DNA of 64,000 nt from Balanoglossus misakiensis (Eukaryota; Animalia; Hemichordata): NCBI GenBank assembly GCA_040954595.2, contig CM082583.2:2923060-2987059 (forward strand). Direction: 5' to 3'. The position numbers and the translations under genes are program-made. The notes under the pieces are model-generated. The model saw only the letters and a program-made list of their open reading frames with translations, made no database searches and was not told the origin of the DNA. Positions 33,101 to 54,905 of this stretch are shown piece by piece; within the stretch, counting starts at the first letter, position 1, and each line of letters begins with the position of its first letter.

Positions 33101-36100
33101 AGTAAACAAATAACAAGAAATGGATGAAAACTAAAAATGAATTTGCCAAATATGTTGGCAAATTGACTGATCCATAGCCTAGTGTAATGGCTATATAAAA
33201 CAGTCTCTCCCATCGCAAAAATATGACAATATCGATAAAATTGAATATACAATGAGACTCAGCTCTCCATATTTAATGAGCGAAATTATAGTTGGGCGAA
33301 ATCCCATTGTTCCAAGGCATAAATTAAAAATAAAGAAATATTTACCTATATTTTTTTAAAACATACCTGTGTTTAAAACCTTAAATGTGCTTTAAATGGT
33401 AAATTTTTAGAACACCCCTGGGCCCTGTTGGTCCATTATTCCACCTGCTACCTTAAAGTTAGGGTCCTATCGTAAAGTTGTGGTCTTTGTGAATGGCACA
33501 TGCAACATGTAATGGAATTGCCATATCAAATGATTCCGTCAATTGGTCAAACAGACACAAGTGCTTTCTGTGGACAATTTTACTGCAGATTACACACGAA
33601 ATTAGCTGCATTACAAATCAGGATTTCCTTTAGATTCTACTTCAGATAGCTACTTCATAATGAAATATTAAAAAAAATATAAAATTGCAAAGTATCAAAA
33701 TATAGTGGATATATTTTGGGTACATCCTAAGTTTACTTGAACAATGTGATAAACCAACATCACACTTTTGGCAATAAGTATAAAACTCTCACTAAAATTA
33801 TTAAAAAAAATATAAAATTGCAAAGTATCAAAATATAGTGGATATATTTTGGGTACATCCTAAGTTTACTTGAACAATGTGATAAACCAACATCACACTT
33901 TTGGCAATAAGTATAAAACTCTCACTAAAAATAGAAAATTGTAGACCTTACCACAAAATGTCCAAAGGTCAATGGGGTCACCCAACCACAGTTAATTTAG
34001 CTAGCAGCTGTTCTGCAGTGGATATGAACACATTCTAACAGATCATAAATTAATTATAGTCTTACCTAAACAATTAATTTCTATTTTACAGATACTAATA
34101 GGAGTATTTCAAAATTCTAAGCCAGAAGTAGAGATGAATGTAATTAGAAGATGTTATGACCAACCTGATTTGTCTCTGATGGCCAGGTCCTTTCCTTCGC
34201 GCAGAATCACTTCTAACAGGAAGAATGGAAATTGCTGGAGATTGACTTTACCCTGCAATCACATTAGAGAAGATTCTTAGTTTTAAAAAAAGATCATGGG
34301 TCATCGTCAAAGCTGTGAAATTTTGCCATGTGGCAGCAGTGTTTCATTTAGATTCACCCTCACCCGCTAGCAATTTGTCAGGGGGGGGGGACCAGTGCCC
34401 TATAAAGTAATGTCACTCACACATTGGAGATATTACAGTCCCCTTTGCCAGAGTGGAATCCCCCCTCAAATATTCTGGCAAAGTGGGACATGTCCCCCCT
34501 GTTGATGCCATCCTGTGGCAGTAATATGTTTCAACAGAACAGATTGTTTGATGACCTGTCATTTCTACCCAACATTCATATCCCTGCCAACACTACCATT
34601 TATTGTTCTGTTTATCATAACACAATATATAGAACACAGAACTGACAATTATTTTCTTAAATTCTTCAGTCCATTCTGCCTTTAACTAGTAAATTAATGT
34701 CATGTTTTACAAATCTAAATCTATCATCAAAAATACACAATTTCCACATAAATTTTGTTATATAAAGCGACAGTGTATCACCTGTTTTTCCAACAGCACC
34801 CTGGTATACTGGTTTGAAAGCCTATTTTTAGCATTGTCTGTTTATCTTCAATGTTTATCATACAATGGAAATGATGGATAATTTAACTGTACAAAATGAT
34901 CAAACAAATTCAAAATATCCAATGAACATAACAGAAACTGCACATTATTCTTTCTTTTGCATCCCAAACTATACTATTTTATCGGTCCAATAATTCCAAA
35001 ATAATAAAACATTATCAATTAACCTTGTTTAATTAATCTGTCGTGTGACCTGCATAATATTTATTCTTGATTGAGCTCATCACCATTTCGGATAAAATAA
35101 CATTTGTAAGTTTTTTAAAAATTAGTAAAAACCAATAGTTTTTGTGTGGAATATTTGTCAATGAGCAATAATCTGTTTCAGTACGCACATATATTTAGCC
35201 GACTCTCACATCATAAATCGTAAACCATATAGCAGATGCTAATATTCTAACAATGTTAAATTTAGCAAATTCTACCAGGCACTGTTAGGTCAATCTGCAT
35301 AATGTACATTTACATGTATACTACTATTGTACAAAAATGACAGATAATTAACAGTTTTATATGTTTACAACCACTTTTTTGTTGTTCATGAAATATATTA
35401 ATTAATGAATAATAAAAAAAAGTATGTTTTTTTGAGATAATGTCAATTTCTTTTTTTTAAAAGCTATTATTACTAACAGTTACCTCTTGTGTGGTACTGG
35501 TTGGACTGATGGGAGGACTGGTCGAGGGACTTTGGCTGTCAAGCGACAAACTTTGTGGTCTGGTGGAACCATTTTGCCCTCCTGCTGTCTCGTTAGCGGT
35601 TAACTTTGGAAGATCCGAATCACTGAAACCGATTTGCTCATCCCTTCGTTTTTGAGCTGCTTCAAAAAGCGAGTCAAACTCCCGATCTGGGGAGTCCAAG
35701 TCATTGGAGTCAGCAGCATCGTTGATTTCTGGCTGACTTAACGTCAGTCTGGGATCGGCACCATTGCTCTTGTTCTTGTCTTTACTTCCCCACTTTTTGG
35801 GTTTTGCCCTCCGTTTGAAGCTATTCCATAACTTCTTCCTCTTATTGACAGCAGTTTCCGAAGTTTCTTGTGTGTCTATCACTTCGTCATCTGCGTCACC
35901 CGGAGAAACTGTGAACAGTGAATACAACACATATCATTTTGTCGTCTACAACAAAAAAATTATAGAATGGCCGCCAACAATTTCGGGGAATTGTTTGCTG
36001 AATAATGTGAACTGAACTGAAGCATATGCGCAAACCCGGCAGTCGTAGTCGTATAAACATCGAGTGCCATTTATTATCAATGGAAAGTGCGCTACACACC

Positions 36101-37111
36101 CGACACAGTTCAGTACGGTCACATGCAACAAGTTGTCAATCCTCTTGTACGTGTATGCAGTTTGTTAGAAATCTGGTAAACTTGTGTGCACAGTTACCAT
36201 ATTGATCGATGATGGTACTGACATATTTAGAACCATACAAACTGCCAGTGATACACATGACGTCATGTAATATACTCTATGAGCTTGTGACCACCTGTAC
36301 ACACGATTACCAGACTCAGGAAGCTAAATGTTTCAATGACAGTACAATTACACAATCCTGGTAATCGCGACAGAGCCATCTATAAACGCAATAAATTAAA
36401 CACGAGTTTTAAACAACTTAAATCAGCTATCAGCAAACCGATTATGACACCTTACGTTCTTCCGACGACATTTCGGCAGCTTTGCAGTGGAGTTGATGAG
36501 GTGACAATCGCTTCGCTATAGATGTCACACCTTTCTACCATCAAATGTTTTCAATGTCCTGTCACGTCCTGCTCCCCATCTGCGCAGTCCAAGTGCGCAT
36601 ATGCCACGGGCTATTCCAATTAAACAAAGGGGTTCCGCGTTTCTACGTCGTTTTACCGAGTAAGTTTATATCGGGGTAGAAACCATATGGAATGGAGCAA
36701 GTCCTTGAATTATAATAAGTTTTGCATAGTCCATCGCTTTATGAAATTTTAGTGACAATATTGCCACTTGCTGTGCTGATATGTAGCTTAACAACATCAA
36801 CCTGGAAAAGTAACCCCCTCTTCGGCCAGAACTATTGAAAGTACCAACCAGCAGAATAAAACTGGGATAATTTTAGCCTGTGATATCGGCCCGGGGTCTT
36901 TTACACTTACCATTTTTGACGTTGGCAAATTTTTTTCTCGACAACAAAAATATCATCGCAAACGTTTTCTAAAATTCTTCTCCGACTTACCATTTCCATC
37001 TTTCTCGATTTCGTCATATTCGTGGTCATCAGCAATCGATCCTGTGGGCGTATCTTTAGGTACTGGATGGATGGGAGCACAACATACGACCGAACGAGAT
37101 CGAGATGCCAT
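1799..37111 (-). CDS. MCTP1: Multiple C2 and transmembrane domain-containing protein (MCTP1/2-like), whole spliced gene, 21 coding exons, 2643 nt, 880 aa
   Basis: 21 GT-AG exons join in phase into one ORF: low-complexity N-terminus, three C2 domains with acidic Ca-ligand loops (RDKSGTSDPY..YDYD..NDD; [17 protein letters not shown]; ADIGGKSDPL..YDED..LEF), hydrophobic segments, acidic linker, and the MCTP-type C-terminus [14 protein letters not shown]. Confidence 0.95.
2678..2775 (-). CDS. MCTP1: MCTP exon 20
   Basis: [33 protein letters not shown]; tag/gtaagt; phase 1 to 0. Confidence 0.96.
3030..3139 (-). CDS. MCTP1: MCTP exon 19 (second membrane segment)
   Basis: [36 protein letters not shown]; tag/gtaagt; phase 2 to 1. 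Confidence 0.96.
3661..3900 (+). mobile_element. Probable partial HINE/DINE-1-like element of a second family
   Basis: T-run then taggtcccatgggacct hairpin then (GGAT)n/GTCC microsatellite, the usual 5' layout of Helentron-associated elements; 3' end not identified. Confidence 0.4.
3935..4047 (-). CDS. MCTP1: MCTP exon 18
   Basis: [37 protein letters not shown]; tag/gtgagt; phase 0 to 2. Confidence 0.95.
4853..4858 (-). CDS. MCTP1: Candidate 6-nt microexon (Lys-Lys) of MCTP, not counted in the 21 exons
   Basis: Minus strand reads tttttgttccctgtttccttcaatgctaactatgcatcttacag AAAAAG gtatgt; frame-preserving in a phase 0 intron. Confidence 0.55.
6941..7000 (-). CDS. MCTP1: MCTP exon 17 (acidic linker)
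   Basis: [20 protein letters not shown]; ttacag/gtaaca; phase 0 to 0. Confidence 0.92.
7157..7240 (+). repeat. Dispersed repeat fragment, second copy at ~31908-31991
   Basis: Both loci share ttccctata(a)tagaggtccaac..taccatagaaaacaa...tttgga...aaccat.gtgg.gaaag.g.taat. Confidence 0.7.
7614..8122. repeat. Compound pentanucleotide microsatellite (GCAGT/GTAGT)n, about 100 units
   Basis: Directly visible; lies in MCTP intron 16. Confidence 0.98.
8335..8460 (-). CDS. MCTP1: MCTP exon 16 (first membrane segment)
   Basis: [28 protein letters not shown]...SDDD; tag/gtaagt; phase 0 to 0. Confidence 0.95.
8852..8971 (-). CDS. MCTP1: MCTP exon 15
   Basis: [12 protein letters not shown]...[16 protein letters not shown]; cag/gtaagt; phase 0 to 0. 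Confidence 0.95.
10086..10160 (-). CDS. MCTP1: MCTP exon 14
   Basis: [25 protein letters not shown]; cag/gtaaa; phase 0 to 0. Confidence 0.94.
10854..10955 (-). CDS. MCTP1: MCTP exon 13 (end of C2C)
   Basis: [34 protein letters not shown]; cag/gtgagt; phase 0 to 0. Confidence 0.96.
11625..11727 (-). CDS. MCTP1: MCTP exon 12 (C2C)
   Basis: [34 protein letters not shown]; tag/gtaagt; phase 2 to 0. Confidence 0.96.
12040..12152 (-). repeat. Dispersed repeat, related copies at ~24505-24570 and ~24772-24890
   Basis: Reverse complement ggagttctgtaatacaataattcgcggtatcagaatacaataa..caaatgaggacgc matches the 24.5-24.9 kb copies. Confidence 0.7.
12937..13039 (-). CDS. MCTP1: MCTP exon 11 (C2C)
   Basis: [34 protein letters not shown]; cag/gtgagt; phase 1 to 2. 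Confidence 0.96.
13474..13512 (-). CDS. MCTP1: MCTP exon 10 (39 nt, C2C)
   Basis: [13 protein letters not shown]; ttccag/gtaaac; phase 1 to 1. Confidence 0.92.
13849..13909 (-). CDS. MCTP1: MCTP exon 9
   Basis: [20 protein letters not shown]; cag/gtcaga; phase 0 to 1. Confidence 0.92.
14330..14516 (-). CDS. MCTP1: MCTP exon 8 (end of C2B, linker)
   Basis: [14 protein letters not shown]...LLTISG...VQKY; gtaagt donor; phase 2 to 0. Confidence 0.95.
14828..14958 (-). CDS. MCTP1: MCTP exon 7 (C2B)
   Basis: [17 protein letters not shown]...[14 protein letters not shown]; phase 0 to 2. Confidence 0.96.
15210..15316. repeat. Small MITE-like inverted repeat
   Basis: Perfect 18-bp inverted repeat ccaatctgattaaaatca (15210-15227) / tgattttaatcagattgg (15299-15316). 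Confidence 0.7.
15335..15665 (+). mobile_element. Non-autonomous DNA transposon (possibly PIF/Harbinger-like), same family as 49426-50008
   Basis: 15335-15535 aligns by eye with the reverse complement of ~49800-50008 (ccattaagacgg...gcgtctcagatca...gccggtcagacc...acacctctccgcaacccattgtc); superfamily is a guess from gggtcaca-type termini. Confidence 0.6.
16238..16414 (-). CDS. MCTP1: MCTP exon 6 (start of C2B)
   Basis: YLARKG...[40 protein letters not shown]; phase 0 to 0. Confidence 0.96.
20131..20239 (-). CDS. MCTP1: MCTP exon 5 (end of C2A)
   Basis: tttttag acceptor, LKNMKLKL...[11 protein letters not shown], gtaagt donor; phase 2 to 0. Confidence 0.93.
21308..21412. repeat. Fold-back hairpin element
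   Basis: aatagaatctcacactcctagggacct pairs almost perfectly with aggtccttggtgtgtgagattctatt. Confidence 0.75.
21855..22044 (+). mobile_element. Kolobok-like MITE, copy 1 (degenerate)
   Basis: Flanked by TTAA on both sides; internal sequence matches 23056-23239. Confidence 0.65.
22761..22983 (-). CDS. MCTP1: MCTP exon 4 (C2A core, [12 protein letters not shown]...LPAN)
   Basis: C2 motifs SDPYV, LNPRWDE, VYDYD; ag/gtaagt; phase 1 to 2. Confidence 0.96.
23056..23239 (+). mobile_element. Kolobok-like MITE, copy 2
   Basis: TTAA|aggtatacgatcacct ... aggtgaccgtatacct|TTAA: 16-bp TIR with one mismatch, TTAA duplication and AG..CT termini (RR..YY ends fit Kolobok rather than piggyBac). Confidence 0.75.
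24109..24836 (+). repeat. Diverged tandem duplication (copies start 24109 and 24570); copy 1 contains a hairpin at 24308-24469
   Basis: Shared text caccacagacattg...agatttattaatcagaaatctttagctgatgtacaa...gtgaaggttcata; perfect 30-bp inverted repeat cctattgcctggccatgagggccatagcag only in copy 1. Confidence 0.85.
30343..30908. mobile_element. Palindromic non-autonomous element, possibly Crypton-like
   Basis: About 65-bp-arm imperfect hairpin at 30343-30485, then ttattatatca paired with a distal tgatataataa (30899-30909) near ccaatcag. Family assignment is recalled resemblance only. Confidence 0.55.
33666..33931 (+). repeat. 133-bp tandem duplication, two apparently identical copies
   Basis: tattaaaaaaaatataaaattgcaaag...ctctcactaaaa starts at 33666 and 33799. 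Confidence 0.95.
34165..34252 (-). CDS. MCTP1: MCTP exon 3 ([29 protein letters not shown], start of C2A)
   Basis: ttgcag acceptor, CAG|gttggt donor, phase 0 to 1, C2 first strand and loop. Confidence 0.92.
35484..35908 (-). CDS. MCTP1: MCTP exon 2 (Ser/Asp-rich N-terminal region)
   Basis: ttcacag acceptor, 425 nt open, GAG|gtaact donor, phase 1 to 0. Confidence 0.85.
36255..36268. promoter_or_regulatory. Perfect CRE palindrome in MCTP intron 1
   Basis: acatgacgtcatgt, a 14-bp palindrome around TGACGTCA in the CpG-rich 5' region; function unproven. Confidence 0.3.
36991..37111 (-). CDS. MCTP1: MCTP exon 1 ([13 protein letters not shown]...EKDGN)
   Basis: ATG at 37111, G|gtaagt donor, phase 1 matches exon 2; no conserved domain, so less certain. 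Confidence 0.65.
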
Positions 37112-37748
37112 ATTCGTATACCACCAGTGCACGACAAAACGCAAATTGCTAAATATAGTTTCTTGAACGTGCATAAACCATTGGAATTCCTAAATAACAT
37201 TTTAGTTTCTCTTTACATTAGCCTTGGAATCGGAAAGATCGTCCCTGTGGGCCTGTTGTTCATAATTTTGAAGAAAGAAGCCCAGGGAAATGAATATTTT
37301 ATATTTCGTAAAAAAAATATACCGTCACTTTTACGTATTTTATGTTTTATAGGTAATTACACAAAAATTGTTGTAATCTATCCTGACGTGGTGGAGTATA
37401 GAGTGAAACTCACTGCCCAGGAAAACAAAAACATCAGTTTGTGACGTTGCGAGTTAGATCAGTTGCATTGTAATTAAAACTTTGACGTCTCCTCTCTATT
37501 GAAATATATATGAAATTTCATGAACAAATTTGATAATTACGGGCCCAAGCCAAGCCAGGCTTGGGCCCGTATTGGTTTCGTTGGAATTTTTAGGGCCCAA
37601 GCGCACGCAAGCGCTTGGGCCCTATTGGTTTCGTTGGGGTTTTTTAGGGCCCAAGCGCACGCAAGCGCTTGGGCCCTATTGGTTTCGTTGGGGTTTTTTA
37701 GGGCCCAAGCCCAGCAGGCTTGGGCCCTATTGGTATTACTGGCTTTTT

Positions 37749-39916
37749 TAGGGCCCAAGCCCAGCAGGCTTGGGCCCTATTGGTATTACTGGGGTTTTTC
37801 TTCTACTTCTTCTTCTTCTTCTTCTTGTGTCGTTTTTTTGTCCACCTAGATCGTGAAAACGGCTGAACCTACAAATCTCACATTTGGCACAATGGTGCAG
37901 GCCTATGAGAGCTGGTGCAGTACACTTGTGAATGTGTAATGAGTCATGTGACCTGATGACCATATATGGGCAAAAATTTTAATTTGGCCTAATTTGCATA
38001 TGAATGGAGATATCAAAATTCTGTTCAGATGCTTTGTGGACCATATGGCCAGGGTTCTACATGCCAAATGTCAAGGCCATAAGCCATGTCAATTTTGAGA
38101 AGAAGATTTTTAAGTATTATTTTCCATATTTTTCGCTCAAGCCATGGGCCTATACTTTACATAGTTAAGCTATTACCACAGATTATTTTGGATAAATATA
38201 CATACATATCTCAAAATCTGTTTGGCCGATCAATTCCAAAGTTGCTGTGCAGCTAGCCTAGCATTTGTCAATCATTTTAAGCGAAAAAAAATATATGAAA
38301 AATCAACCGATTTTTTTATATTAATTTTTTTATTAAATGTATACCTTTACTTATAGCTCCATAGTTAAGCTATGTCCACGTCTTATTGTGGAATTCTGGT
38401 CTGTGCAATGGTCCTGTAAAGTGACTGTCTATTGGCCAGTGAGCAGAATGGGACCAAAATAAAAGGCAAAATTTTGGGCTCACCTGTAACACCTGCTTAA
38501 CTCATTTATTATGTGCATACCTAATTCTGGGCTAACTAAGAGGGCTAGAGGTTTCGTTCTTGTGGGACATGGACCAGTATAGGGTCAAAATTTCTTGCCC
38601 AAATTTTGGGTGACCTCAGGTGACCTTTGACCTACTTTCCTATATCTCGGCATCCAGAGCAGGTACAGACTTGGCGTTTGGAGGGTTGGGACTAAAATTG
38701 AAAAGCCGAAATGGGGGTCACCTGCGACACCTGCATATCTCATTAATTATGTGCATACCTAATTCCAGGCTAACCAATAGGGCTATAGGTTTGGTTTTTG
38801 TTGAACATGGACCAGTATAGGGTCAACATTTCTTGCCCAAATTTTGTATGACCTCAGGTGACCTTTGACCTACTTTACGATATCTTGGCATCCAGAGCAG
38901 GTACAGACTTGGCGTTTGGAGGGCTGGGACTAAAATTGAAAAGCCGAAATGGGGGTCACCTGTGACACCTGCATATCTCATTAATTATGTGCATACCTAA
39001 TTCCAGGCTAACCAATAGGGCTATAGGTTTGGTTTTTGTTGAACATGGACCAGTATAGGGTCAAAATTTCTTGCCCAAATTTTGTATGACCTCAGGTGAC
39101 CTTTGACCTACTTTACCATATCTTGGCATCCAGAGCAGGTACAGACTTGGCGTTTGGAGGGTTGGGACTAAAATTGAAAAGCCGAAATGGGGGTCACCTG
39201 TGACACCTGCATATCTCATTAATTATGTGCATACCTAATTCCAGGCTAACCAATAGGGCTATAGGTTTGGTTTTTGTTGAACATGGACCAGTATAGGGTC
39301 AAAATTTCTTGCCCAAATTTTGTATGACCTCAGGTGACCTTTGACCTACTTTACCATATCTTGGCATCCAGAGCAGGTACAGACTTGGCGTTTGGAGGGT
39401 TGGGACTAAAATTGAAAAGCCGAAATGGGGGTCACCTGTGACACCTGCATATCTCATTAATTATGTGCATACCTAATTCCAGGCTAACCAATAGGGCTAT
39501 AGGTTTGGTTTTTGTTGAACATGGACCAGTATAGGGTCAAAATTTCTTGCCCAAATTTTGTATGACCTCAGGTGACCTTTGACCTACTTTACCATATCTT
39601 GGCATCCAGAGCAGGTACAGACTTGGCGTTTGGAGGGTTGGGACTAAAATTGAAAAGACAAAATTTGGGGTCACATGTGACACCTGCATATCTCATTAAT
39701 TATGTGCATACCTAATTCCAGGCTAACCAATAGGGCTATAGGTTTGGTTTTTGTCGGACATGGACTAGTATAGGGTCAAAATTTCTTGCCCAAATTTTTG
39801 CATGACCTCAGGTGACCTTTGACATATTTTTCCAAATCCAGAGCAGATATGCTTATTGCTATGTTGCTATGTGCTATGTTGGCTTGGGCCCGCTATTGCT
39901 GCTTGCAGCTATATTT
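37749..39916 (+). mobile_element. HINE family A, copy 1 (innermost, uninterrupted)
   Basis: 5' subTIR hairpin, (CTT)n microsatellite, core, about six 238-bp tandem units, 3' subTIR at 39881-39891 and stem-loop gctgcttgcagc. Confidence 0.88.
38450..39830 (+). repeat. 238-bp tandem array inside HINE A1
   Basis: tgacctttga recurs at 38621, 38859, 39097, 39335, 39573 and 39813; related units occur in all other bodies. Confidence 0.95.
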
Positions 39917-41565
39917 CTTCTACTTCTTCTTCTTCTTCTTCTTGTGTCGTTTTTTTGTCCAGCTAGATCTGGAGAACGGCTGAACCTACCAATTTCAAAC
40001 TTAGTACAATGGTGCAGGCCAATGAGAGCTGGTGCAGTACCCTCGTGAATGTTTAATTAGTCACGTGACCTGATGACCATATATGGGCAAAATTTTCAAA
40101 TCGCCCTAATTTGCATATGAATTGAGATATCAAAATTCTGTTCAGATACTTTGTGGACCATATGGCCAGGGTTCTACATGCCAAATGTCAAGGCCATAGG
40201 CCATGTCAATTTTGAGGAGAAGATTTTTAAGTATTATTTTCCATATTTTTCGCCCAAGCCATCGGCCTATACTTTACATAGTAAAGCTATGACCACATAT
40301 TATTTTGGATAAATATGCATACATATCTCAAAATCTGTTAGGCCGATCATCTCCAACTTTGGTGTGCAGCTAGTCTAGCATTTGTCAATAATTTTAAGCG
40401 AAAAAAAATAATATGAAAAATCGACCGATTTTTTTATATTAATTTTTTTATTAAATTTATACATTTACTTATACCTCTATGGTTTAGCTATGTCCATGTC
40501 TTATTGTGGAATTCTGGTCTGTGCAATAGTCCTGTAAAGTGACTGTCTATTGGTCAGTGAGCACAATAGCACCAAAATAAAAGGCACGATTTTAGGCTCA
40601 CCTGTAACACCTGCTTAACTCATTAATTATGTGCATACCTAATTCTGGGCTAACTAAGAGGGCTAGAGGTTTCGTTCTTGTGGGACATGGGCCAGTATAG
40701 GGTCAACATTTCTTGCCCAAATTTTGGGTGACCCCAGGTGACCTTTGACCTACTTTCCTATATCTCGGCATCCAGAGCAGGTACATACTTGGCGTTTGGA
40801 GGGTTGGGACTAAAGTTGAAAAGCCAAAAAGGGGGTCACCTGTGACACCTGCATATCTCATTAATTATGTGCATACCTAATTCAAGGCTAACCAATAGGG
40901 CAATAGGTTTGGTTTTTGTTGAACATGGACCTGTTTAGGGTCAAAATGTCTTGCCCAAATTTTGTATGACCTCAGGTGACCTTTGACCTACTTAACCAGA
41001 TCTTGGCATCCAGAGCAGGTACAGACTTGGCGTTTGGAGCGTTGGGACTAAAATTGAAGAGGCAAAATTGGGGGTCACCTGTGACACCTGCCTACATCAT
41101 TAATTATGTGCATACCTAATTCCAGGCTAACCAATAGGGCTATAGGTTTGGTTTTTGTTGAACGTGGACCAGTATAGGGTCAAAATTTATTGCCCAAATT
41201 TTGCATGACCTCAGGTGACCTTTGACCTACTTTACCATATCTTGGCATCCAGAGCAGATACAGAATTGGCGTTTAGATGGTTGGGACTAAAATTAAAAAG
41301 CCAAATTGGGGGGTCACCTGTGACACCTGCCTACCTCATTAATTATGTGCATACCTAATTCCAGGCTAACCAATAGGGCTATAGGTTTGGTTTTTGATGA
41401 ACATGGACCAGTATAGGGTCAAAATTTCTCGCCCAAATTTTGCATGACCTCAGGTGACCTTTGACCTACTTTTCCATATCTTGGCATCCAGAGCAGATAT
41501 GCTTATTGCTATGTTGCTATGTGCTATGTTGGCTTGGGCCCGCCATTGCTGCTTGCAGCTATATT
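39917..41565 (+). mobile_element. HINE family A, copy 2 body and 3' end (head at 37699)
   Basis: Resumes with cttctacttcttc exactly as copy 1 does after its head; about four 238-bp units; same 3' end. Confidence 0.88.
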
Positions 41566-42987
41566 CTTTCTTTCTTTTTTCTTGTGTCAATTTCTTCGGC
41601 CAACGAGATCTCTGAAACTACTGCAGGTACACTTCTCAAACTTGATACAGTGGTCAAGGTCAATGAGTAGATGTGCAGTGACTTGTGAATAATTAATTAG
41701 TCACGTGACCTGGCGGCCATATTGGATTTTCTGAAAAAATTCAAATCTCAGATCTCAGAAACTACAAGTCAGATCGACTTCAAATTTGGCATGCAGGTAG
41801 ACTACCTTCTACCCATCATTTTTGTAATTGGAAATTTTGCTGTCAATGTTGCAGTTTTTTTGCTACAATTTTTTTTCTGAAATCTGGCTTAAATTTCAAA
41901 AATCTTCTTCTCCAGAACCAGTGATAACCGAGACACGGGGTTTGGGGTATGTGGTCACCTAACTGATGTCTATCAAGTTTGCGAAGATCATTGTGATTGG
42001 TCAAAGATTATGGCGGCCATATTGGATTTTAGAAAAACCATTGTTAAACTCCAAAAATCTTCCTCTCCAGAACGGGCGATGACTGAGTCGCAAGATTCGG
42101 GGAGTATGGTCACTACACTGATGTCTATCAAGTTTGCAAAGAGCATTGTGATTGGTCGAAGATTATGGCGGCCATATTGGATTTTGTAAAAAGCAGTGAA
42201 AAATTGAAATTCCTTTTTCTAGTCTAAAAATTGATAGCATACAAATTCTTTTTATGGATATCAATCGTCATGTGACTAAAATATGTCACAATTTTTTGGC
42301 GATTTTTCACATGACCTTTGACCTACTTATCACGCGTTATTATTTCTGCATATCTAATTCCAGGCTAACCTATAGGGCTAGACGTTTGGTTTTTGATGAA
42401 TGTGGATTAGTGTGTGATCAAAATATTTTGCTACTTTTCATGACCCCTTTGACCTCTGCTGACCTCATTAATTATGTGCATAGCTAATTACAGGCGAACC
42501 AATAGAGCTAGAGGTTTGGTTTTTGTTGGACACAGACCAGTATGGGATCAAAATTTTTTGCCCAAATGTTGCGTGACCTCTGGTGACCTTTGACCTACTT
42601 TCGCATATCTCAGCATCCAGAGCAGATACAGCCATGGCATTTGGTAGGATGGGACCAAAATGTAAAGCCACATTTTTGGGTCACCTATGACACCTGCTGA
42701 CCTCATTAAATATGCACATACCTAATTACAGGCGAACCAATAGAGCTAGAGTTTTGGTTTTTGTTGGACATGGACCAGTATGGGTCAAAAAAAAATTGCC
42801 CAAATGTTGGGTGACCTCAGGTGACCTTTGACCTACTTCACCCTATTTAAGCAGCAAAAATACACACGTCCTTGTTATGTCATGAGATAATACATCCGAT
42901 AGAAAATTCTGTTTCTTCTCATTCATACTGTGCATATATAATTCAAGATCAGCGCTTGGGCCCGACAATGCTGCTCGCAGCTTTAAT
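41566..42987 (+). mobile_element. HINE family B, copy 1 body and 3' end (head at 37645)
   Basis: 3' subTIR gcgcttgggccc is complementary to gggcccaagcgc of heads 37591/37645; stem-loop gctgctcgcagc. Confidence 0.88.
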
Positions 42988-44399
42988 CTTTCTTTCTTTT
43001 TTCTTGTGTCAATTTCTTCGGCCAACGAGATCTCTGAAACTACTGCAGGTACACTTCTCAAACTTGCTACAGTGGTCAAGGTCAATGAGTAGATGTGCAG
43101 TGACTTGTGAATAATTAATTAGTCACGTGACCTGGCGGCCATATTGGATTTTCTGAAAAAATTCAAATCTCAGATCTCAGAAACTACAAGTCAGATCTAC
43201 TTCAAATTTGGCATGCAGGTAGACTACCTTCTACCCATCATTTTTGTAATTGGAAATTTTGCTGTCAATGTTGCAGTTTTTTTGCTACAATTTTTTTTCT
43301 GAAATCTGGCTTAAATTTCAAAAATCTTCTTCTCCAGAACCAGTGATAACCGAGACACGGGGTTTGGGCTATGTGGTCACCTAACTGATGTCTATCAAGT
43401 TTGCGAAGATCATTGTGATTGGTCGAAGATTATGGCGGCCATATTGGATTTTCGAAAAACCATAGTTAAACTCCAAAAATCTTCTTCTCCAGAACGGGCG
43501 ATGACTGAGTCGCAAGATTCGGGGAGTATGGTCACTACACTGATGTCTATTTAGTTTGCAAAGAGCATTGTGATTGGTCGAAGATTATGGCGGCCATATT
43601 GGATTTTGTAAAAAGCAGTGAAAAATTGAAATTCCTTTTTCTAGTCTAAAAATTGATAGCATACAAATTCTTTTTATGGATATCAATCGTCATGTGACTA
43701 AAATATGTTACAATTTTTTGGCGATTTTTCACATGACCTTTGACCTACTTATCACGCGTTATTATTTCTGCATATCTAATTCCAGGCTAACCTATAGGGC
43801 TAGACGTTTGGTTTTTGATGAATGTGGATTAGTGTGTGGTCAAAATATTTTGCTACTTTTCATGACCCCTTTGACCTCTGCTGACCTCATTAATTATGTG
43901 CATAGCTAATTAAAGGCGAACCAATAGAGCTAGAGGTTTGGTTTTTGTTGGACAAAGACCAGTATGGGATCAAAATTTTTTGCCCAAATGTTGCGTGACC
44001 TCTGGTGACCTTTGACCTACTTTCGCATATCTCAGCATCCAGAGCAGATACAGCCATGGCATTTGGTAGGATGGGACCAAAATGTAAAGCCACATTTTTG
44101 GGTCACCTGTGACACCTGCTGACCTCATTAAATATGCACATGCCTAATTACAGGCGAACCAATAGAGCTAGAGTTTTGGTTTTTGTTGGACATGGACCAG
44201 TATGGGTAAAAAAAATTGCCCAAATGTTGGGTGACCTTAGGTGACCTTTCACCTACTTTCAGCAGCAAAAATACACACATCCTTGTTATGTCATGAGATA
44301 ATACATCCGATAGAAAATTCTGTTTCTTCTCATTCATACTGTGCATATATAATTCAAGATCAGCGCTTGGGCCCGACAATGCTGCTCGCAGCTTTAATT
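42988..44399 (+). mobile_element. HINE family B, copy 2 body and 3' end (head at 37591)
   Basis: Near-identical to 41566-42987. Confidence 0.88.
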
Positions 44400-45811
44400 C
44401 TTTCTTTATTCTTATGTCAATCTTTGCTCTCCTAGATCTCTGAAACGGCTACAGGTACACTTCTCAAACTTGCTACAGTGGTCAAGGTCAATGAGTAGAT
44501 GTGCAGTGGCTTGTGAATATTTAATTAGTCACGTGACCTGGCGGCCATATTGGATTTTCTGAAAATGTTTAAATGGCTTCTTCTCAAAAACCACAGGGCC
44601 AATCAAGTTCAAATTTGGTGTATGGTACACATGTCCTCTGCCCTTCAAAAATTGACAATAAAATCCTGAGCGGTCACGTGACCTTGGCCGCCATATTGGA
44701 TTTTCGAAAAAGTACAGTAAAATCTTCAAAAATCTTCTTCTCCAGAACCGGCAATAACCGAGTCATGGGATTTAGGGTATGACATCACCTAACTGATGTC
44801 TATCAAGTTTGCGAAGAGCGTTGTGATTGGTCGAAGATTATGGCGGCCATATTGGATTTTGTAAAAACCAGTGAAAATTAAGAAATCATTTTTCTAGTCT
44901 AAAAATAGATAGCATACAAATTCTTTTTGTTGATATGAGTCGTCATATGACTAGAATATGTTGCAAATTTTTTGGCAATTTTCACATGACCTTTGACCTA
45001 CTTTTTTAAGAACCTGCATATATGCATATATAGCTCATACTACCTGTTCTAAATGTACCAGAGTTCTGATTTTTGTGCACATTGGTATCATCCCTGCCAG
45101 GACCTACCCCAAATATTTTGGTAATTTTGGCAATGACCTTTGACCTACTTTTGACACATCGTTTTTTCTGCATATCTAATTCCAGGCTAACCAATAGGGC
45201 TATAAGTTTGGTTTTTGATGTATGTGGATTTGTATGTGATCAAATAATTTTGCTACTTTTCGTGACCCCTTTGACCTCTGCTGACCTCATTAAATATGCA
45301 CATACCTAATTACAGATGAACCAATAGACCTAGAGGTTTTGTTTTTTTTATACATGGACCTTTATGGTGTCAAAATATTTTGCCCAAATGTTGGGTGACC
45401 TCGGGTGACCTTTGACCTACTTTTGCATATCTCGACATCCACAGCAGATACAGCCTTGGCGTTTGGAGGTATGGGGCCATAATGAAAAGCCAAAGTTTTG
45501 GGTCACCTGTGACACCTGCTTAACTCATTATTTATGTGTATACCTAATTCCGGGCTAACCAAAAGGGCTAGAGGTCTGGTTTTTGTTGGACATGGACCAC
45601 TATGGGTCAAAATTTTCTGCCCAAATTGTGGGTGACCTCTGGGTGACCTTTGACCTACTTAACACTATATCAACACCAAACATAGATATAACCTTGATAT
45701 TTCATGGGATAAAACACAGCATTATGTTTCTACTCATTAATTATGTGCATTTCTAATAATCAGACCAGATAATAGAGCTTGGGCCCGGACAATGCTGCTT
45801 GCAGCTTTAAT

Positions 45812-48065
45812 TACGGGCCCAAGCCAAGCCAGGCTTGGGCCCGTATTGGTTTCGTTGGAATTTTTAGGGCCCAAGCGCACGCAAGCGCTTGGGCCCTATT
45901 GGTTTCGTTGGGGTTTTTAGGGCCCAAGCGCATACCAGCGCTTGGGCCCTATTGGTTTCGTTGGGGTTTTTCTGTCTTTCCTTCTTTCTTCTTTCTTCTT
46001 TCTTCTTCTTTCTTTATTCTTGTGTCAATTCTTTGTCGCTCTAGATCTCAGACACCACTGCAGGTACACTTCTCAAACTTGCTACAGTGGTCAAGGTCAA
46101 TGAGTAGATGTGCATTGAACCCTTGAATTTTTAATTAGTCACGTGACCTGGCGGCCATATTAGATTTTCTGAAAAAATGCAAATCTCAGATCTCAGAAAC
46201 TACAAGTCAGATCGACTTCAAACTTGGTGTGCAGGTAGTCTACCTTCTACCCATCATTTTTGTAATTGGATATTTTGCTGTCAATGTTGCAGTTTTTTTG
46301 CTACAGTTGTTTTTCTGAAATCTGGTCAAAATTTCAAAAATCTTCTTCTCCAGAACCGGCGATAACCGAGTCACGCGGTTTGGGGTATGTGGTCACCAAA
46401 CTGAGGTCTATCAAGTTTGCGAAGATCATTGTGATTGGTCGAAGATTATGGCGGCCATATTGGATTTTCGAAAAACCCTAGTAAAATTTCAAAAATCTTC
46501 TTCTCAAGAACCGGCGATAACCGAGTCACAAGATTTGGTGTGTGTGGTCATTAAACAGATGTCTATCAAGTTTGCGAAGATCATTGTGATTGGTCGAAGA
46601 TTTTGGCGGCCATATTGGATTTTGTGAACAACGATTAAAAAGTAAAAATTCTGTTTCTAGCCTAAAAATTGATAGCACAGAAATTCTTTTTATGGATATG
46701 AATCATCATATGACAAGAATAAGCTATAAATATTTTGGTAATTTTGGCAATGACCTTTGACCTACTTTTGACGCATCATTTTTCTGCATATCTAATTCCA
46801 GGCTAACCAATAGGGCTATAAGTTTGGTTTTTGATGTATGTGGTTTTGTATGTGATCAAAAATTTTTGCTACTTTTCATGACCCCTTTGACCTCTGCTGA
46901 CCTCATTAAATATGCGCATACCTAATTACAGATGAACCAAATGACCTAGAGGTTTGTTTTTTTCTGGACATGGATCAGTATGGGGTCAAAATATTTTGCC
47001 CAAATGTTGGATGACCTCGGGTGACCTTTGACCTACTTTTGCATATCTCGACATCCACAGCAGATACAGCCTTGGCGTTTGGAGGTATGGGGCCATAATG
47101 AAAAGCCAAAGTTTTGGGTCACCTGTGACACCTGCTTAACTCATTAAGTATGCGCATACCTAATTACAGACGAACTAATAGATCTAGAGTTTTTGTTTTT
47201 TTTGGACATGGACCAGTATTTGGTCAAAGAATTTTGGGTGACCTCAGTGACCTTTTACCTACTTTCTCATATCTTGGCATCCACTGCAGGTACAGGCTTA
47301 GCATTTGGAGGGATGGAACACCTCACCGAATCCCACAATTTACCCCATTAATTATTCGCATATATAATTCCAAGCGAACCAATAGGGCTAGAGGTGTGTT
47401 TTTGTTGAATTCAAAAGTTTTTGCCCAAATTTTGGATGAACTGAGGTGACTTTTAACCTACTTTACCATATCTCGGCACCAACAGTAGCTACAGCCTTGT
47501 CCTTTCGAGGGATGGGATCAAAATTAAAAGGCAAATTTTGGGGTCACCTGTGACACCTGCTTGACTCATTAATTACGTGCATACCTGATTCCAGGCCTAC
47601 CAAATGGAATAGAGGTCTGGTTTTTGTTGAACATGGACCAATATGGGGTCACAATCTTTTGCCAAAATTTAGGGTGACCTGACCTGACCTTTACAGGAGT
47701 TACATCCTTTGTTTTTTGAGGGATGGGACAAAAATGAAAAGCTAAATTTTTGGTTAATCTGTGACACCTTCTTAACCTCATTAATTATGCACATACCTAA
47801 TTCCAGGCTAACCAACACAGCTAGCAGTTCCATTTCAGTTGGGCATGGACCAGTATGGCATCAAAATATTTTGGAGCAATTTTTTTGTGAACTTTGACCT
47901 AATTTTACAAATCTCGGCATCCAGGGCAGATACCGCTTTACTCATGTTGTCGGACACCTTACCACATTAAATTTTACGCTGACCAATAGTGGCAGAAGGG
48001 AAGCTGGGACCAGTATGGGACCAAATTTTTGACAAATTTTTGGGTAACCTTGGGATGACCTTTTA
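45812..48065 (+). mobile_element. Second stack: three HINE/Helentron heads (45812, 45865, 45918) and body D with decaying ~240-bp units; no 3' end in the window
   Basis: Heads 45812 and 45865 match heads 37538 and 37591; third head is a new variant (loop cataccag); body shares sequence with bodies B and C. Confidence 0.85.
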
Positions 48066-49425
48066 GTTTTCATTATCGTGATATGTTGAAACACTTAATG
48101 CGTTCTTATACTTCACCTCCTTATTTTGCCTACAACAAATAGTATCCTTAAAAATAAGAGGGCTTACATGTTTTGTGTTTTGGATCTCCACTAGTATGTG
48201 ACAACATTATTTGAGAAATATTTGTGTATTAGACCTTCAAGTTTTCTTTATCTTGGTATCCGGAAAATCTACCAAACCAGATATATTGTACAGAGTACAG
48301 AGAGACATGAAAGTCAGACGTGGACATTTTGTTTTAAGTGGTCAGCGACCTATAATGTAGACTAAAATAAAGAGATGACTACAGTAAAAGGCTTATGTTA
48401 AAAAGCAATGATTCAACTTACAGGTTTATCTGAAGCACATAAAACAAATGGTTGACATCAGTTGAGGTTGGTTTTTGTTATTGCAAGAAACTAAACAAAC
48501 ACAGATTACAATTGTTCACAGTTTTAAGCAATTATATCCAGCTGACAATGGCCAAGTATAATAATAACTAATAATAATAACTAAATAATAAGTTCAGACA
48601 CCATTTAATTTCTGAAAAAGAGGATTAGTGAAATTAAGTTAGCATCTTTCTAAATTGTTTGAACATCCATTTGATACAGTGCATATTTAACACGACAAAT
48701 ACTTAAGAACATATATGTATTATGAGGACATATCTAGTATACAACAAAGCAAATCTGACCTTGACAAAAGTCTACTTGAATTTTAAAATACAGTTCAGCA
48801 TATCCATTAAGACATTTCTTGTTGTGCACAATTTTAGAAAATCAAACGGGACATAGCATTGACAGAAATAGTCATTAAACGTAATCTGACAACTTGATTG
48901 TGTACAAGCCTTAATTGCAGATCATTTGTTAAAGGTACAAAGTAGCTTTTGTTTGCCCTTTTTGATATCATTCAAGAATACAGAGAGTACCTGCATTAAG
49001 TCACTGACTGTGCAATATGCTGTCAGTGCATAACCTAAAAAGGGGTCAGTAAATACCCCTTTGCTGTAAGTAAAGTTGTGATTTTGTGTGTGATACGAAA
49101 TGAATACCTGTACCAAAGTACGTTTCCTTTTGACAAATAACATTGCCATGGCATTGTACATGGCAGTTATACATGAAAGAATACTACACTCTGAGATCTC
49201 ATGCCAAGATCCATGTGGTCTAAATAGTTTGCAACACTGGCTATATATTCAAATACATGGATAAAAGTTTAGCACACAGTGGAAAACTGGGTGGACATCA
49301 TAAATTATTTATGTGAATGTTCAATCTTGTATGTTGATATACAAGCATAGTTCACCAGTACAGTACTGTACTGGTAAACACAGAGCATTAATCCTTTAAG
49401 TCGCTGCACACACACACAGTTTATT

Positions 49426-50008
49426 AGGCTGTTCACAATACTCAGAACGGGTCTGGCCGACCTTTGTCCGGACAATTTTTGTCCCAGTTGAATGGGTTGG
49501 TTTGTATCCTACTCTGGTCCGACTCTGGTCCCACTACGGTGTGTGTGGACACGTTTTGTCCGAATCTGGTCCCAGATTGACATAATAGTGTAGTCCATCG
49601 TTTGACAATGAAGAAAATCGTATGAACAACCATTAGAGGACCAACATGGTTCTGCTTTATAAGGTGAAAGGTTGGCGAGACACCACTGGCCAGGACTGTG
49701 CCAATCACAATGTGAACGGGGACTAAAGATTAGCTTGTCTTGTCACAATCATCAGTGACACGTTTTGCCCGGCCATGGGCCCAGATGTGAACCCACCATA
49801 AGTAGGGGCGCTGAGGCTTAGTCCCATGGACAATGGGTTGCGGAGAGGTGTTACAGTAATTCTTTACACCGGCTCCGGTCTGACCGGCAAATGCTGTCTC
49901 AAATCTAAGCAATTTCAGAACCACTAAACACTGTCCACACCTGATTCTTTAAGATGGTATCTGATCTGAGACGCTTCAGAACCGTCTTAATGGTGTGTAT
50001 GTGACCCT
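49426..50008 (-). mobile_element. Non-autonomous DNA transposon (possibly PIF/Harbinger-like), same family as 15335
   Basis: GC-richer block with imperfect termini aggctgttcacaatac / gtatgtgaccct and homology to 15335-15535. Confidence 0.55.
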
Positions 50009-50359
50009 ATACAGTTTACAGTGTTTCAATAAGTCAAACAACAGGTCCAGTTTTGAATATTAAGTCAACACAAAATGAAAATACATAATTATTTGATTGA
50101 AACCATTCTTGATAATACAAATGACAATTTCAAATCATGTTATAAAATAACTATCTTGACTCAAAATTGGCTATTTACATGGAATACCAAACATCAAGAA
50201 ACTTATTTCAGAATAAAAAGTACAACTTAAATTATTTCTATTACTCTCATAATGCAGGCAAATATCTTTACTGTAATAAAAAATCATCCAGTACAATAAG
50301 TTGTTCAAAATACAGTATTTCATGTTTCTTTTTACAAAATGCAATATATACGCTATACC

Positions 50360-50603
50360 ACACAGTATTAAAAGCAGGTGAATTATGTACATGTACTCAA
50401 TATTGCATACCATATGATCATACAAACAAATGTACACACAGAAGTGAATACCCCATGGTGTAGCAATAAAATTGTTAAATTACACAGTATTAAAAGCAGG
50501 TGAATTATGTACATGTACTCAATATTGCATACCATATGATCATACAAACAAATTTACACACAGAAGTGAATACCCCATGGTGTAGCAATAAAATTGTTAA
50601 ATT
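50360..50603 (+). repeat. 122-bp tandem duplication
   Basis: cacagtattaaaagcagg...aaaattgttaaatt at 50361 and 50483. Confidence 0.95.
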
Positions 50604-50691
50604 GTAATTATATCATACCAAGCAGCAATGTAAATTGTTCTAAAATACTTTTTATATTTAACATAGATTTTATATATACATAGAAAATGAC

Positions 50692-50757
50692 TACATACAT
50701 ACATACATACATACATACATACATACATACATACATACATACATACATGCCTGCATG

Positions 50758-50795
<38 letters not shown>
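50692..50795. repeat. (TACA)n and (CA)n microsatellites
   Basis: Directly visible. Confidence 0.95.
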
Positions 50796-51047
50796 TGCAT
50801 ATACACATGTACATATGTTACAAATGTACATATGCCAGTGCATACATGACAAAGACATACAGACAGATATAACATTATGACAGCCAGGCAGCCTGTCTTA
50901 AATTACTCAATCCTTCGCCTGAGTTTATCTTCAGACAGACAGACAGACAGACAACTCACTAAGGCGTGTAGACAACCTAGTCTTAATTACCCTGTCCTCC
51001 CCCAGAGTTTATATCTTTTTCTGAAAGTTAAATCACAACATGTTAGA

Positions 51048-54000
51048 CAAATTATTTGCAGTTGGTGTATCGCTACCTTATCGTAACCTTATCAAAAGCA
51101 ATCTGGTGGTCAATATTATTTTGCGGTAAGGTAAATACATGTTATGTAAAATGTTGATGTCAGCTTTCTCAGATTATATCATAAGGCAGTTGAACGACAT
51201 GCACACACTATTGCTACAGATCCCGACTACCCACTTTAAAAATTCTTTTAAAATCTCCAATTATGGACATGCTACAGAGATCAATTTAACAGGAAACAAT
51301 TCCTTTGGAAAATACTTTTCCCAACAGCTATATCTATTTTAAATTCAAGTTTCATCCTTTTTTAGTTTTATCCAGTGCTGCAGATGTGCTTTTCATCATG
51401 TTGTCTTATTTGTGTATATACATTGTTATCAAAATGTCATTTATCCTGAATTTATAACTGATTGATGAGCCTCATGAAGACAAGTTTCACAGCTATTGTT
51501 GACAATTAAGTATTTGAATTGATTTAACATAGGAGCCAGTATAAGAACATTTAACCTCTTGCTGGGTAGTTTTGTTTTTATCTAGTCTCACTCCCAGACC
51601 TCATCGCTGTGCACCATAGTGTGCTACTGGCAGTATGACCAGGCAAGGAGCGCAGCGACAAGCACAAGTCGCCCGCCAAATCAGATCACTTGCCCGGTCA
51701 TGTCCTACCACCAGAAGCACACACTTTGCCCTGGTGAAGCAACAAGGTCTGGTACCATCACTCAGCTTTTCCGTAACAAAGGCCATTATTAAATCATGTA
51801 CGTGAATGAGGTTTTTCCTCGTGACGGGTTATATCTTTATTTTTCTAATAACACTTATGTTATTTCAAAACACAACTCTAAATTAATATTTTGATCCTTA
51901 TTGCTTCATGAAAGCTAAAGTATTTTGGTACAACATTTACCGTCACACTTTCTATTCCTTTCTCAGACACAAGATCAATCAATTTATTAGCTTCTGTAGT
52001 TAATTTGCTTCAAATTATTTGCAGTTGGTGTATCGCTACCTTATCGTAACCTTATCAAAAGCAATCTGGTGGTCAATATTATTTTGCGGTAAGGTAAATA
52101 CATGTTATGTAAAATGATGATGTCAGCTTTCTCAGATTATATCATAAGGCAGTTGAACGACATGCACACACTATTGCTACAGATCCCGACTACCCACTTT
52201 AAAAATTCTTTTAAAATCTCCAATTATGGACATGCTACAGAGATCAATTTAACAGGAAACAATTCCTTTGGAAAATACTTTTGCCAACAGCTATATCTAT
52301 TTTAAATTCAAGTTTCATCCTTTTTTAGTTTTATCCAGTGCTGCAGATGTGCTTTTCATCATGTTGTCTTATTTGTGTATATACATTGTTATCAAAATGT
52401 CATTTATCCTGAATTTATAACTGATTGATGAGCCTCATGAAGACAAGTTTCACAGCTATTGTTGACAATTAAGTATTTGAATTGATTTAACATAGGAGCC
52501 AGTATAAGAACATTTAACCTCTTGCTGGGTAGTCTTGTTTTTATCTAGTCTCACTCCCAGACCTCATCGCTGTGCACCATAGTGTGCTACTGGCAGTATG
52601 ACCAGGCAAGGAGCGCAGCGACAAGCACAAGTCGCCCGCCAAATCAGATCACTTGCCCGGTCATGTCCTACCACCAGAAGCACACACTTTGCCCTGGTGA
52701 AGCAACAAGGTCTGGTACCATCACTCAGCTTTTCCGTAACAAAGGCCATTATTAAATCATGTACGTGAATGAGGTTTTTCCTCGTGACGGGTTATATCTT
52801 TATTTTTCTAATAACACTTATGTTATTTCAAAACACAACTCTAAATTAATATTTTGATCCTTATTGCTTCATGAAAGCTAAAGTATTTTGGTACAACATT
52901 TACCGTCACACTTTCTATTCCTTTCTCAGACACAAGATCAATCAATTTATTAGCTTCTGTAGTTAATTTGCTTCAAATTATTTGCAGTTGGTGTATCGCT
53001 ACCTTATCGTAACCTTATCAAAAGCAATCTGGTGGTCAATATTATTTTGCGGTAAGGTAAATACATGTTATGTAAAATGATGATGTCAGCTTTCTCAGAT
53101 TATATCATAAGGCAGTTGAACGACATGCACACACTATTGCTACAGATCCCGACTACCCACTTTAAAAATTCTTTTAAAATCTCCAATTATGGACATGCTA
53201 CAGAGATCAATTTAACAGGAAACAATTCCTTTGGAAAATACTTTTGCCAACAGCTATATCTATTTTAAATTCAAGTTTCATCCTTTTTTAGTTTTATCCA
53301 GTGCTGCAGATGTGCTTTTCATCATGTTGTCTTATTTGTGTATATACATTGTTATCAAAATGTCATTTATCCTGAATTTATAACTGATTGATGAGCCTCA
53401 TGAAGACAAGTTTCACAGCTATTGTTGACAATTAAGTATTTGAATTGATTTAACATAGGAGCCAGTATAAGAACATTTAACCTCTTGCTGGGTAGTCTTG
53501 TTTTTATCTAGTCTCACTCCCAGACCTCATCGCTGTGCACTATAGTGTGCTACTGGCAGTATGACCAGGCAAGGAGCGCAGCGACAAGCACAAGTCGCCC
53601 GCCAAATCAGATCACTTGCCCGGTCATGTCCTACCACCAGAAGCACACACTTTGCCCTGGTGAAGCAACAAGGTCTGGTACCATCACTCAGCTTTTCCGT
53701 AACAAAGGCCATTATTAAATCATGTACGTGAATGAGGTTTTTCCTCGTGACGGGTTATATCTTTATTTTTCTAATAACACTTATGTTATTTCAAAACACA
53801 ACTCTAAATTAATATTTTGATCCTTATTGCTTCATGAAAGCTAAAGTATTTTGGTACAACATTTACCGTCACACTTTCTATTCCTTTCTCAGACACAAGA
53901 TCAATCAATTTATTAGCTTCTGTAGTTAATTTGCTTCAAATTATTTGCAGTTGGTGTATCGCTACCTTATCGTAACCTTATCAAAAGCAATCTGGTGGTC

Positions 54001-54905
54001 AATATTATTTTGCGGTAAGGTAAATACATGTTATGTAAAATGATGATGTCAGCTTTCTCAGATTATATCATAAGGCAGTTGAACGACATGCACACACTAT
54101 TGCTACAGATCCCGACTACCCACTTTAAAAATTCTTTTAAAATCTCCAATTATGGACATGCTACAGAGATCAATTTAACAGGAAACAATTCCTTTGGAAA
54201 ATACTTTTGCCAACAGCTATATCTATTTTAAATTCAAGTTTCATCCTTTTTTAGTTTTATCCAGTGCTGCAGATGTGCTTTTCATCATGTTGTCTTATTT
54301 GTGTATATACATTGTTATCAAAATGTCATTTATCCTGAATTTATAACTGATTGATGAGCCTCATGAAGACAAGTTTCACAGCTATTGTTGACAATTAAGT
54401 ATTTGAATTGATTTAACATAGGAGCCAGTATAAGAACATTTAACCTCTTGCTGGGTAGTTTTGTTTTTATCTAGTCTCACTCCCAGACCTCATCGCTGTG
54501 CACTATAGTGTGCTACTGGCAGTATGACCAGGCAAGGAGCGCAGCGACAAGCACAAGTCGCCCGCCAAATCAGATCACTTGCCCGGTCATGTCCTACCAC
54601 CAGAAGCACACACTTTGCCCTGGTGAAGCAACAAGGTCTGGTACCATCACTCAGCTTTTCCGTAACAAAGGCCGTTATTGAATCATGTACCTGAATAAGG
54701 TTATTCCTCGCGGTGGGTTATATCTTTATTTTTCTAATCACACTGATTTTATTTCAAAACACAAGTCTAAATAATTATATTTTGATGCTTATTGCTTCAT
54801 GAAAGCTGAAGTATTTTGGTACCACATTTACTGTCACATATTTTATTCCTTTCACATACACATGATCAATCAATGTATTAGCTTCTGTAGTTGGTTCGCT
54901 AACAA
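51048..54905. repeat. 963-bp tandem array, four units, overlapping the 3' end of the Helentron ORF
   Basis: caaattatttgcagttgg starts at 51048, 52011, 52974, 53937; units nearly identical; the ORF track repeats with the same period. Confidence 0.97.
54725..54730 (-). terminator. Candidate polyadenylation signal of the Helentron transcript
   Basis: AATAAA on the minus strand about 45 nt after the TAA; a second at 54748-54753. Confidence 0.45.

Follow-up and report, generated by a model that had tools for sequence, protein, structure and literature searches.

A five-deep, mirror-ordered nest of putative Helentron-type elements in Balanoglossus misakiensis, with a predicted rule for its insertion site

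A Block of Stacked Heads and Headless Bodies

We analyzed a 64,000-nt stretch of the genome of the hemichordate Balanoglossus misakiensis (GCA_040954595.2, contig CM082583.2, positions 2,923,060-2,987,059 of the forward strand), hereafter the window, to which all positions below refer. It holds a block of repeats that are best read as non-autonomous Helentron-type elements (HLE2/HINE). The block opens with five stacked 5' ends (heads) at 37539-37799, of types X, B, B, A and A in that order. Behind them lie five bodies, and a 3' end (tail) closes each body. Head starts were set at the first non-T base and tail ends at the last non-T base. A preliminary description of the same DNA had reported five heads and five bodies, and this layout was borne out with coordinates that differ by a few bases at most. 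The parts are as follows, where subTIR denotes a subterminal inverted repeat and T5 a run of five T.

37537-37538, plus strand: TT, left boundary of the whole inserted block, where the empty allele departs from the window sequence
37539-37591, plus strand: head X, with 5' subTIR hairpin, spacer and T5 target run; partner body c (paired by divergence and by a contig joint, 45865 to 44391)
37592-37645, plus strand: outer head B; partner body b2 (alignment, folding, divergence pairing)
37646-37699, plus strand: inner head B, identical to the outer B; partner body b1 (alignment, divergence pairing)
37700-37749, plus strand: outer head A, two differences from the inner A; partner body a2 (alignment, divergence pairing)
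37750-39913, plus strand: innermost, uninterrupted element A-a1, 2164 nt, with head, (TTC)n, core, 5.7 copies of a 238-bp repeat, 3' subTIR (39882-39891) and short palindrome
39917-41563, plus strand: headless body a2 and tail, with 3.8 copies of a 239-bp repeat; subTIR 41532-41541
41566-42986, plus strand: headless body b1 and tail; subTIR 42954-42963
42988-44397, plus strand: headless body b2 and tail, 98.7% identical to b1; subTIR 44365-44374
44400-45810, plus strand: headless body c and tail, closing the five-deep nest; subTIR 45777-45786

Two groups of bodies can be told apart, a and b/c/d (84-99% alike within the latter, in which d belongs to a second stack described below); identity is 92.8% for a1/a2, 84% for b/c and 75-77% for a against b or c. 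One 10-mer is common to heads and tails: it makes up the inner arm of every head and, in the same strand orientation, the 3' subTIR. The window has 21 occurrences of it, always within 37541-45949, against an expectation of 0.02 (100 shuffles). Hairpins of 13-14 bp formed in 3/3 heads folded (z -4.5 to -5.9), and both hairpin arms are present in 8/8 heads. Folding of three tails yielded no more than a short stem-loop without significance (z -0.8 to +1.5). By inspection, the a and c tails contain a short palindrome, which does not form in the b tail. Microsatellite tracts, either (TTC)n or CTTT, follow the 5' end, the internal repeats are of 238/239 bp and 155 bp, and body a2 resumes with the microsatellite start seen after the innermost A head, as had been noticed earlier. 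No open reading frame (ORF) of at least 120 aa was found within 37538-48300, and Rfam gave no match in 36000-49000.

Most of the defining features of the HINE/DINE-1 group are present in these elements. In the accessible text of PMC4067079 and of the report on the oyster Cg_HINE (PMC7492417), that group has a 5' subTIR with a nearby inverted repeat, a microsatellite, central tandem repeats, a 3' subTIR, a short 3' palindrome and T-flanked ends of variable T number, and it is non-coding and makes no duplication. Its 3' subTIR complementarity is 11-13 bp; here, the 3' subTIR is complementary to the 5' subTIR over 11-12 bp in the five mirror pairs discussed below. The HINE/DINE-1 anatomy given in the preliminary description agrees with these published accounts; the 3' stem-loop of the present tails folds no better than shuffles. 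Insertion between T and T without duplication is likewise seen at the inner junctions, 4/4 of which are flanked by T-runs only; the outer boundary lies at TT. A canonical Helitron (HLE1: 5' TC, 3' CTRR, A/T insertion) was ruled out by the T-flanked subTIR ends. MITEs (miniature transposable elements with inverted repeats) move by cut-and-paste and have terminal repeats and target duplications; a MITE was also ruled out, since the repeats here are subterminal and asymmetric and no duplication exists at 4/4 inner junctions.

Heads and Bodies Pair in Mirror Order

Independently of the subTIRs, each of the 120 possible head-to-body assignments was scored by how well distances between heads correlate with those between bodies (first 300 nt). 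The mirror order was among the top 2 of 120 (r 0.959), compared to 0.484 for the best non-mirror type order and 0.281 for the forward order. Excision in silico from the inside out gave elements with own lengths of 1466, 1465, 1477, 1700 and 2164 nt. At 4/4 inner junctions, T5-6 precedes the insert, T1-3 follows it and the host resumes at C, while the uninterrupted heads (n = 2) read T5/C, matching this resumption point. Since head and body divergence are congruent, the T-run/C resumption is clean and contigs join X heads to c or b/c/d body starts, the mirror (last-in-first-out) pairing of heads with bodies is supported. The order had initially been argued from subTIR complementarity, which proved too weak for the purpose: the mirror pairing scores 57, but 28/120 pairings score at least as high, and it is divergence that upholds the order. 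The earlier pairing of X with c likewise stands on divergence and on a contig joint, but not on its subTIR match, as head X is complementary over 14 bp to the A tails versus 11 bp to the c tail.

Two identical B heads, the 98.7% likeness of b1 and b2 and a second stack with three heads and no tail might also be expected if heads and body-plus-tail units had been amplified separately, by slippage or unequal exchange, or if head-only mini-elements had been arrayed in tandem, with count and order agreeing by chance. Independent duplications would then have to yield both the mirror order (2/120) and equal counts, however; adjacent bodies represent three subfamilies 16-25% apart, and 4 of b2's private changes are absent from b1. 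We consider separate amplification far-fetched. Together, divergence, junctions and contig joints support the nested self-insertion with last-in-first-out pairing that was first proposed for this block, and the nest was very probably built by insertion.

Contigs Reveal an Allele without the Block

Two contig sets, X1 and X2, derive from one sample that may be the window's own source, so they are not independent; contig depth is no copy number, and ratios to the left flank (depth 39-41 in X1, 114-150 in X2) are rough. One X1 contig (943 nt, depth 38.9) matches 37311-37538 and then carries 715 unaligned letters, and an X2 contig of 799 nt, at a depth of 114.3, aligns to 37457-37538 and extends 713 letters further. 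These contigs, which leave the window at TT 37537-37538, represent an allele without the block. The flank also carries two alleles at position 37503, with depths of 23 and 20, from which we infer a heterozygous insertion. No contig of a further run, X3, matched the stretch, which is no proof of absence.

An empty-site contig at 37538 in both runs would also be seen if the assembler had attached the block to the wrong flank or pieced it together, and neither a flank-to-head bridge nor a nest-spanning contig was found among the contigs listed. Such an artefact is nonetheless very unlikely: all copies differ mutually (1.3-25%), the break lies at precisely the TT expected, nothing would lead an assembler to produce a mirror order, the two flank alleles are those expected of a heterozygous insertion, and the junction of c tail and X head is present in three contigs.

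The elements are high-copy and dispersed, with contig depth summing to 1e4-4e5 over the bodies and heads occurring with other flanks. Among 12 of 50 loose contig ends, several X heads run into a microsatellite or a b/c/d-type body start, and other ends show X then B', A then a head of a different type, an A tail leading into an A head, the c tail leading into X, or heads with other flanks. The end of an X head is joined to the start of body c at a depth of 2917 in X2, with 11 other letters between (among 12 of 120 joints). X with T6, absent from the window, occurs in one X1 contig (depth 1041) and A with T7 in another (depth 680), and X2 heads with T-runs unlike those of the window reach single-contig depths of 1723 and 555; we take heads with such T-run lengths to mark loci elsewhere at which one head abuts another. 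Variants of stacked heads that the window lacks reach approximately 4-27 times flank depth in single contigs, and a B-type variant sums to a depth of 17471 over four X1 contigs.

A Second Head Stack Follows the Nest

Directly after the c tail lies another stack, bringing the totals for the window to 8 heads and 5 tails.

45813-45971, plus strand: second head stack X, B, B', in which X and B equal the first stack's X and B (54/54 and 53/53 aligned letters)
45972-48270, plus strand: body d, with a b-like start (92% over 300 nt) and 238-type units decaying stepwise to about 48270, and no tail in the window
47119-49000, plus strand: distal d and following DNA, multi-copy (X1 contigs with 0-1 differences, depth 406-504 versus 39-41 for the left flank)

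Near-exact X1 contigs cover 47119-48810 at roughly 10 times flank depth. Since the DNA to the right of d is multi-copy by contig depth, it is probably part of a longer mobile unit headed by the second stack, and not host flank; the same depth rules out a unique flank there. A rolling-circle concatemer of the nest was also rejected as the source of the second stack, because the third head and the body differ (B', d). The preliminary description had named multi-head arrays without matching tails as evidence that would speak against it. Such an array does occur at 45813, and the first nest is not undone by it: X-B-B'-d fits, by analogy, the product of a published model in which a self-inserted element leaves at the first terminator.

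In contigs of both runs, a c-type tail is joined directly to a B' head (joint of 45813 to 45917; depth 221 in X1 and 714 in X2). This may reflect another allele, or a tandem arrangement, tail to head, elsewhere in the genome.

Insertion Site and Its Spacing from the 10-mer

The five tails end 22, 22, 23, 23 and 24 nt past the 10-mer. Head T-runs end 22-23 nt past it, and all six head-to-head junctions in the window are found there, the T-run sitting 17-18 nt from the base of the head hairpin. Each element offers 13-23 runs of T5+/A5+, and the inner insertions lie in the head run in 4/4 cases (approximately 1e-5 under equal use of runs). Were every head run an equally good target, strict nesting would have a chance of 1 in 24; only the innermost head retains an intact T5/C-pyrimidine site.

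These distances point to a predicted targeting rule, which we hold to be slightly better than an even proposition. A rolling-circle transposase would insert each copy at a site mimicking the element's own 3' end: RepHel, acting in trans, would bind the 10-mer on a resident head and nick the T-run at its usual distance, as at a 3' end. HUH strand transfer, which is established for Helraiser (PMC4778049), would then link the host head with the 5' end of the incoming copy, whose tail would be joined to the host body, thereby fixing orientation. The sole intact T5/C site at the innermost head would lead to strict nesting, which points either to that site as the one good target or to pre-built nests being mobilized whole. 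If transposition later began at an outer head and stopped at the first terminator, the product would carry several heads on a single body, as X-B-B'-d does. The subTIR-guided ruler specifically is modestly favored on these spacings. The wider proposal is more tentative, and we place it somewhat below even: these may be site-specific, self-targeting Helentrons whose transposase finds its own 10-base motif in a resident head and integrates 22-23 bases downstream, in which case copies would serve as polarised landing pads, grow into ordered nests and export multi-head chimeras.

Several observations weigh against this interpretation. The spacings match only within 1-3 nt, the single tail-to-head junction lies 26 nt from the 10-mer, and 0/4 inner tails served as a target despite similar geometry. 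SubTIR matching by itself is uninformative on pairing, and b1 has b2's minority letter at 2/7 sites (see below). No RepHel is linked to these ends, the window's intact RepHel having no such termini nearby. Moreover, no contig spans either the nest or the second stack, and none of the best 16 of 851 contig pieces bridges the flank to head X, so the occupied allele lacks confirmation in the runs X1 and X2, which share one sample that may be the window's source.

The same nest could also have arisen by insertion with the site chosen without any protein ruler, the head hairpin exposing single-stranded DNA beside the T-run and pyrimidine tract. Helentrons favor T-rich targets, and a poly-T endonuclease nick has been proposed (PMC4067079, in its accessible text); the head hairpins are very stable, and inner tails that have the 10-mer without a strong hairpin went untargeted (0/4). 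However, the match in spacing between head and 3' end (22-23 versus 22-24 nt) would then be a coincidence, and the T-run lies 17-18 nt off the hairpin base, not adjoining it. We regard site choice by the hairpin as possible but doubtful.

Nest Depth and Order of Arrival

The preliminary description also read the head array as an ordered record of insertions, and this was not borne out, since the inner nest could move as a unit and b1 shows no age gradient relative to b2. With d as outgroup, the 19 sites that differ between b1 and b2 divide into 9 private to b1, 8 private to b2 and 2 that d does not resolve. At 7 sites, 88% or more of X1 depth disagrees with b2 (majority letters taken from 14 of 40 contig rows); at these, b1 has the majority letter in 4/7, b2's letter in 2/7 and a third letter in 1/7. 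The majority letter at 4/7 sites rules out that b1 was copied directly from b2 as it now stands, and by their sequences b1 and b2 look like near-contemporary separate copies. Nest depth cannot yet be read as time order, and bracket order need not equal chronology.

These data bear on an alternative route, itself compatible with a ruler, in which the nest was put together from pre-built blocks (for example, A-in-A moved whole into a solo B), such that depth would not equal arrival order and the outer shells might be later hosts. It would account for strict nesting, at 1 in 24 under equal head runs, and for b2 and b1 showing no gradient in age (private changes: 8 in b2, 9 in b1); moreover, the inner a1/a2 are more diverged than the outer b1/b2, and the X-B double head recurs unchanged at 45813. 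Bypass of a 3' end has been shown for Helraiser (PMC4778049) and movement of a nested unit proposed in maize (PMC3288121), both in the accessible text. On the other hand, inner terminators would have to be bypassed, an intact T5/C at the innermost head alone accounts for strict nesting without bypass, and a1 and a2 may merely be separate subfamilies. Assembly from blocks is thus conceivable but, in our judgment, rather unlikely.

Relation to Known Elements and Implications

Self-insertion is not new for the HLE2 group, and what is added here is the intact mirror-ordered nest and the equal spacing. The preliminary description knew of no account of such ordered self-nesting in this group; multiple 5' termini ascribed to self-insertion have been published for HLE2, with related cases in maize and Xenopus. 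In Fusarium, FoHeli copies with multiple 5' termini were proposed to result when an element inserts into itself and is then excised at the first 3' end (PMC5148889), and one Fusarium copy has five 5' termini (PMC13342296). As in the available portions of these two reports, our elements are of HLE2 type with stacked short 5' ends, and X-B-B'-d looks like that product. The multi-head copies described there, however, have a single 3' terminus and duplicated lengths of 31, 65, 73 and 85 nt, and the nest is hypothetical, whereas here a whole five-deep nest is preserved, with subfamily-matched bodies at one insertion site.

Other systems are less close. Maize helitrons (PMC3288121) have multiple termini for which a nested origin was proposed, but they are canonical Helitrons with mainly multiple 3' ends; Xenopus HelenXT233 (PMC11417382) has two left ends, LTS1 and LTS2, each marking a different subfamily. 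An ordered fixed-site nest is not described in the accessible text of either, nor is fixed-site self-nesting in that of the HINE/DINE-1 reports (PMC4067079, PMC7492417), as against five copies at one site in mirror order here. MITE multimers of rice and maize (PMC5172404) are small and non-autonomous with frequent independent self-insertion, and the available text describes no polarity or fixed site.

In our search, with subscription papers, Repbase reports and figures outside its reach, neither an intact nest with mirror order and a fixed site nor an equal-spacing rule turned up. HELIANO supplements had no match to the motif or family name; eight supplement files of PMC5148889 had none for the terms sought, and 12 of the 15 files of PMC13342296 held only a legend on multiple 5' termini. 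A metagenome scan for stacked heads returned five loci, all unrelated repeats without the tail motif. Head patterns had no match in viral contigs (X-type and A/B-type) or in prokaryote genomes, and viral contigs likewise held no relative of a RepHel segment.

How Helentrons (HLE2) choose targets and recognize their ends is still hypothetical in the literature available to us, in which the canonical Helitron Helraiser has been reconstituted as a working system. The intact nest corresponds to the intermediate that the Fusarium work postulated for elements with multiple 5' ends, and a likely precursor nest and a likely multi-head product would stand side by side in the window. The equal spacing in head and tail offers a concrete rule for where the transposase would cut and join; if true, it would mean programmable, orientation-fixed integration at a short motif. 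For annotation, arrays of 50-bp heads and headless bodies would be parts of nests, not satellites.

An Autonomous Helentron and Other Features of the Window

54775-62505, minus strand: intact 2576-aa Helentron ORF with OTU, DUF6570, Rep, PIF1 helicase and endonuclease

This ORF contains coding repeats of 45 bp and 54/66 bp, with 205-bp repeats upstream (62859-63629). Neither the termini nor the repeats of the nest elements were found near it in the window, beyond which its ends may lie. A profile of 15 nest repeat units gave no link to the repeats beside it, and neither 47900-52100 nor 62400-64000 contained a convincing HLE2-like terminus. The ORF could represent a separate family; that it is the reversed ORF of the long X-B-B'-d unit is less likely, and improbable in our view. 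About four tandem copies of the end of this ORF and the following DNA lie at 51048-54908 (period approximately 963 bp, 96.5-98.8% alike).

To the left of the block, exons of a C2-domain gene (Pfam C2) lie at 36991-37111, 35457-35933 and 16235-16405 on the minus strand, with synaptotagmins as the nearest solved chains; we take the gene to be MCTP-like. The first coding exon of this gene is predicted to begin at 37111. Since the insertion site of the block lies 427 bp upstream of the predicted start codon, the block is likely in the promoter and, being missing from another allele, may be a regulatory polymorphism.

An unrelated interspersed repeat of about 200 bp is present in inverted copies at 49807-50007 and 15336-15532 (81% alike). 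Other tandem repeats are found at 7614-8123 (5 bp x 102), 33666-33930 (133 bp x 2), 50360-50603 (122 bp x 2) and 50692-50801, the last being (TACA)n.

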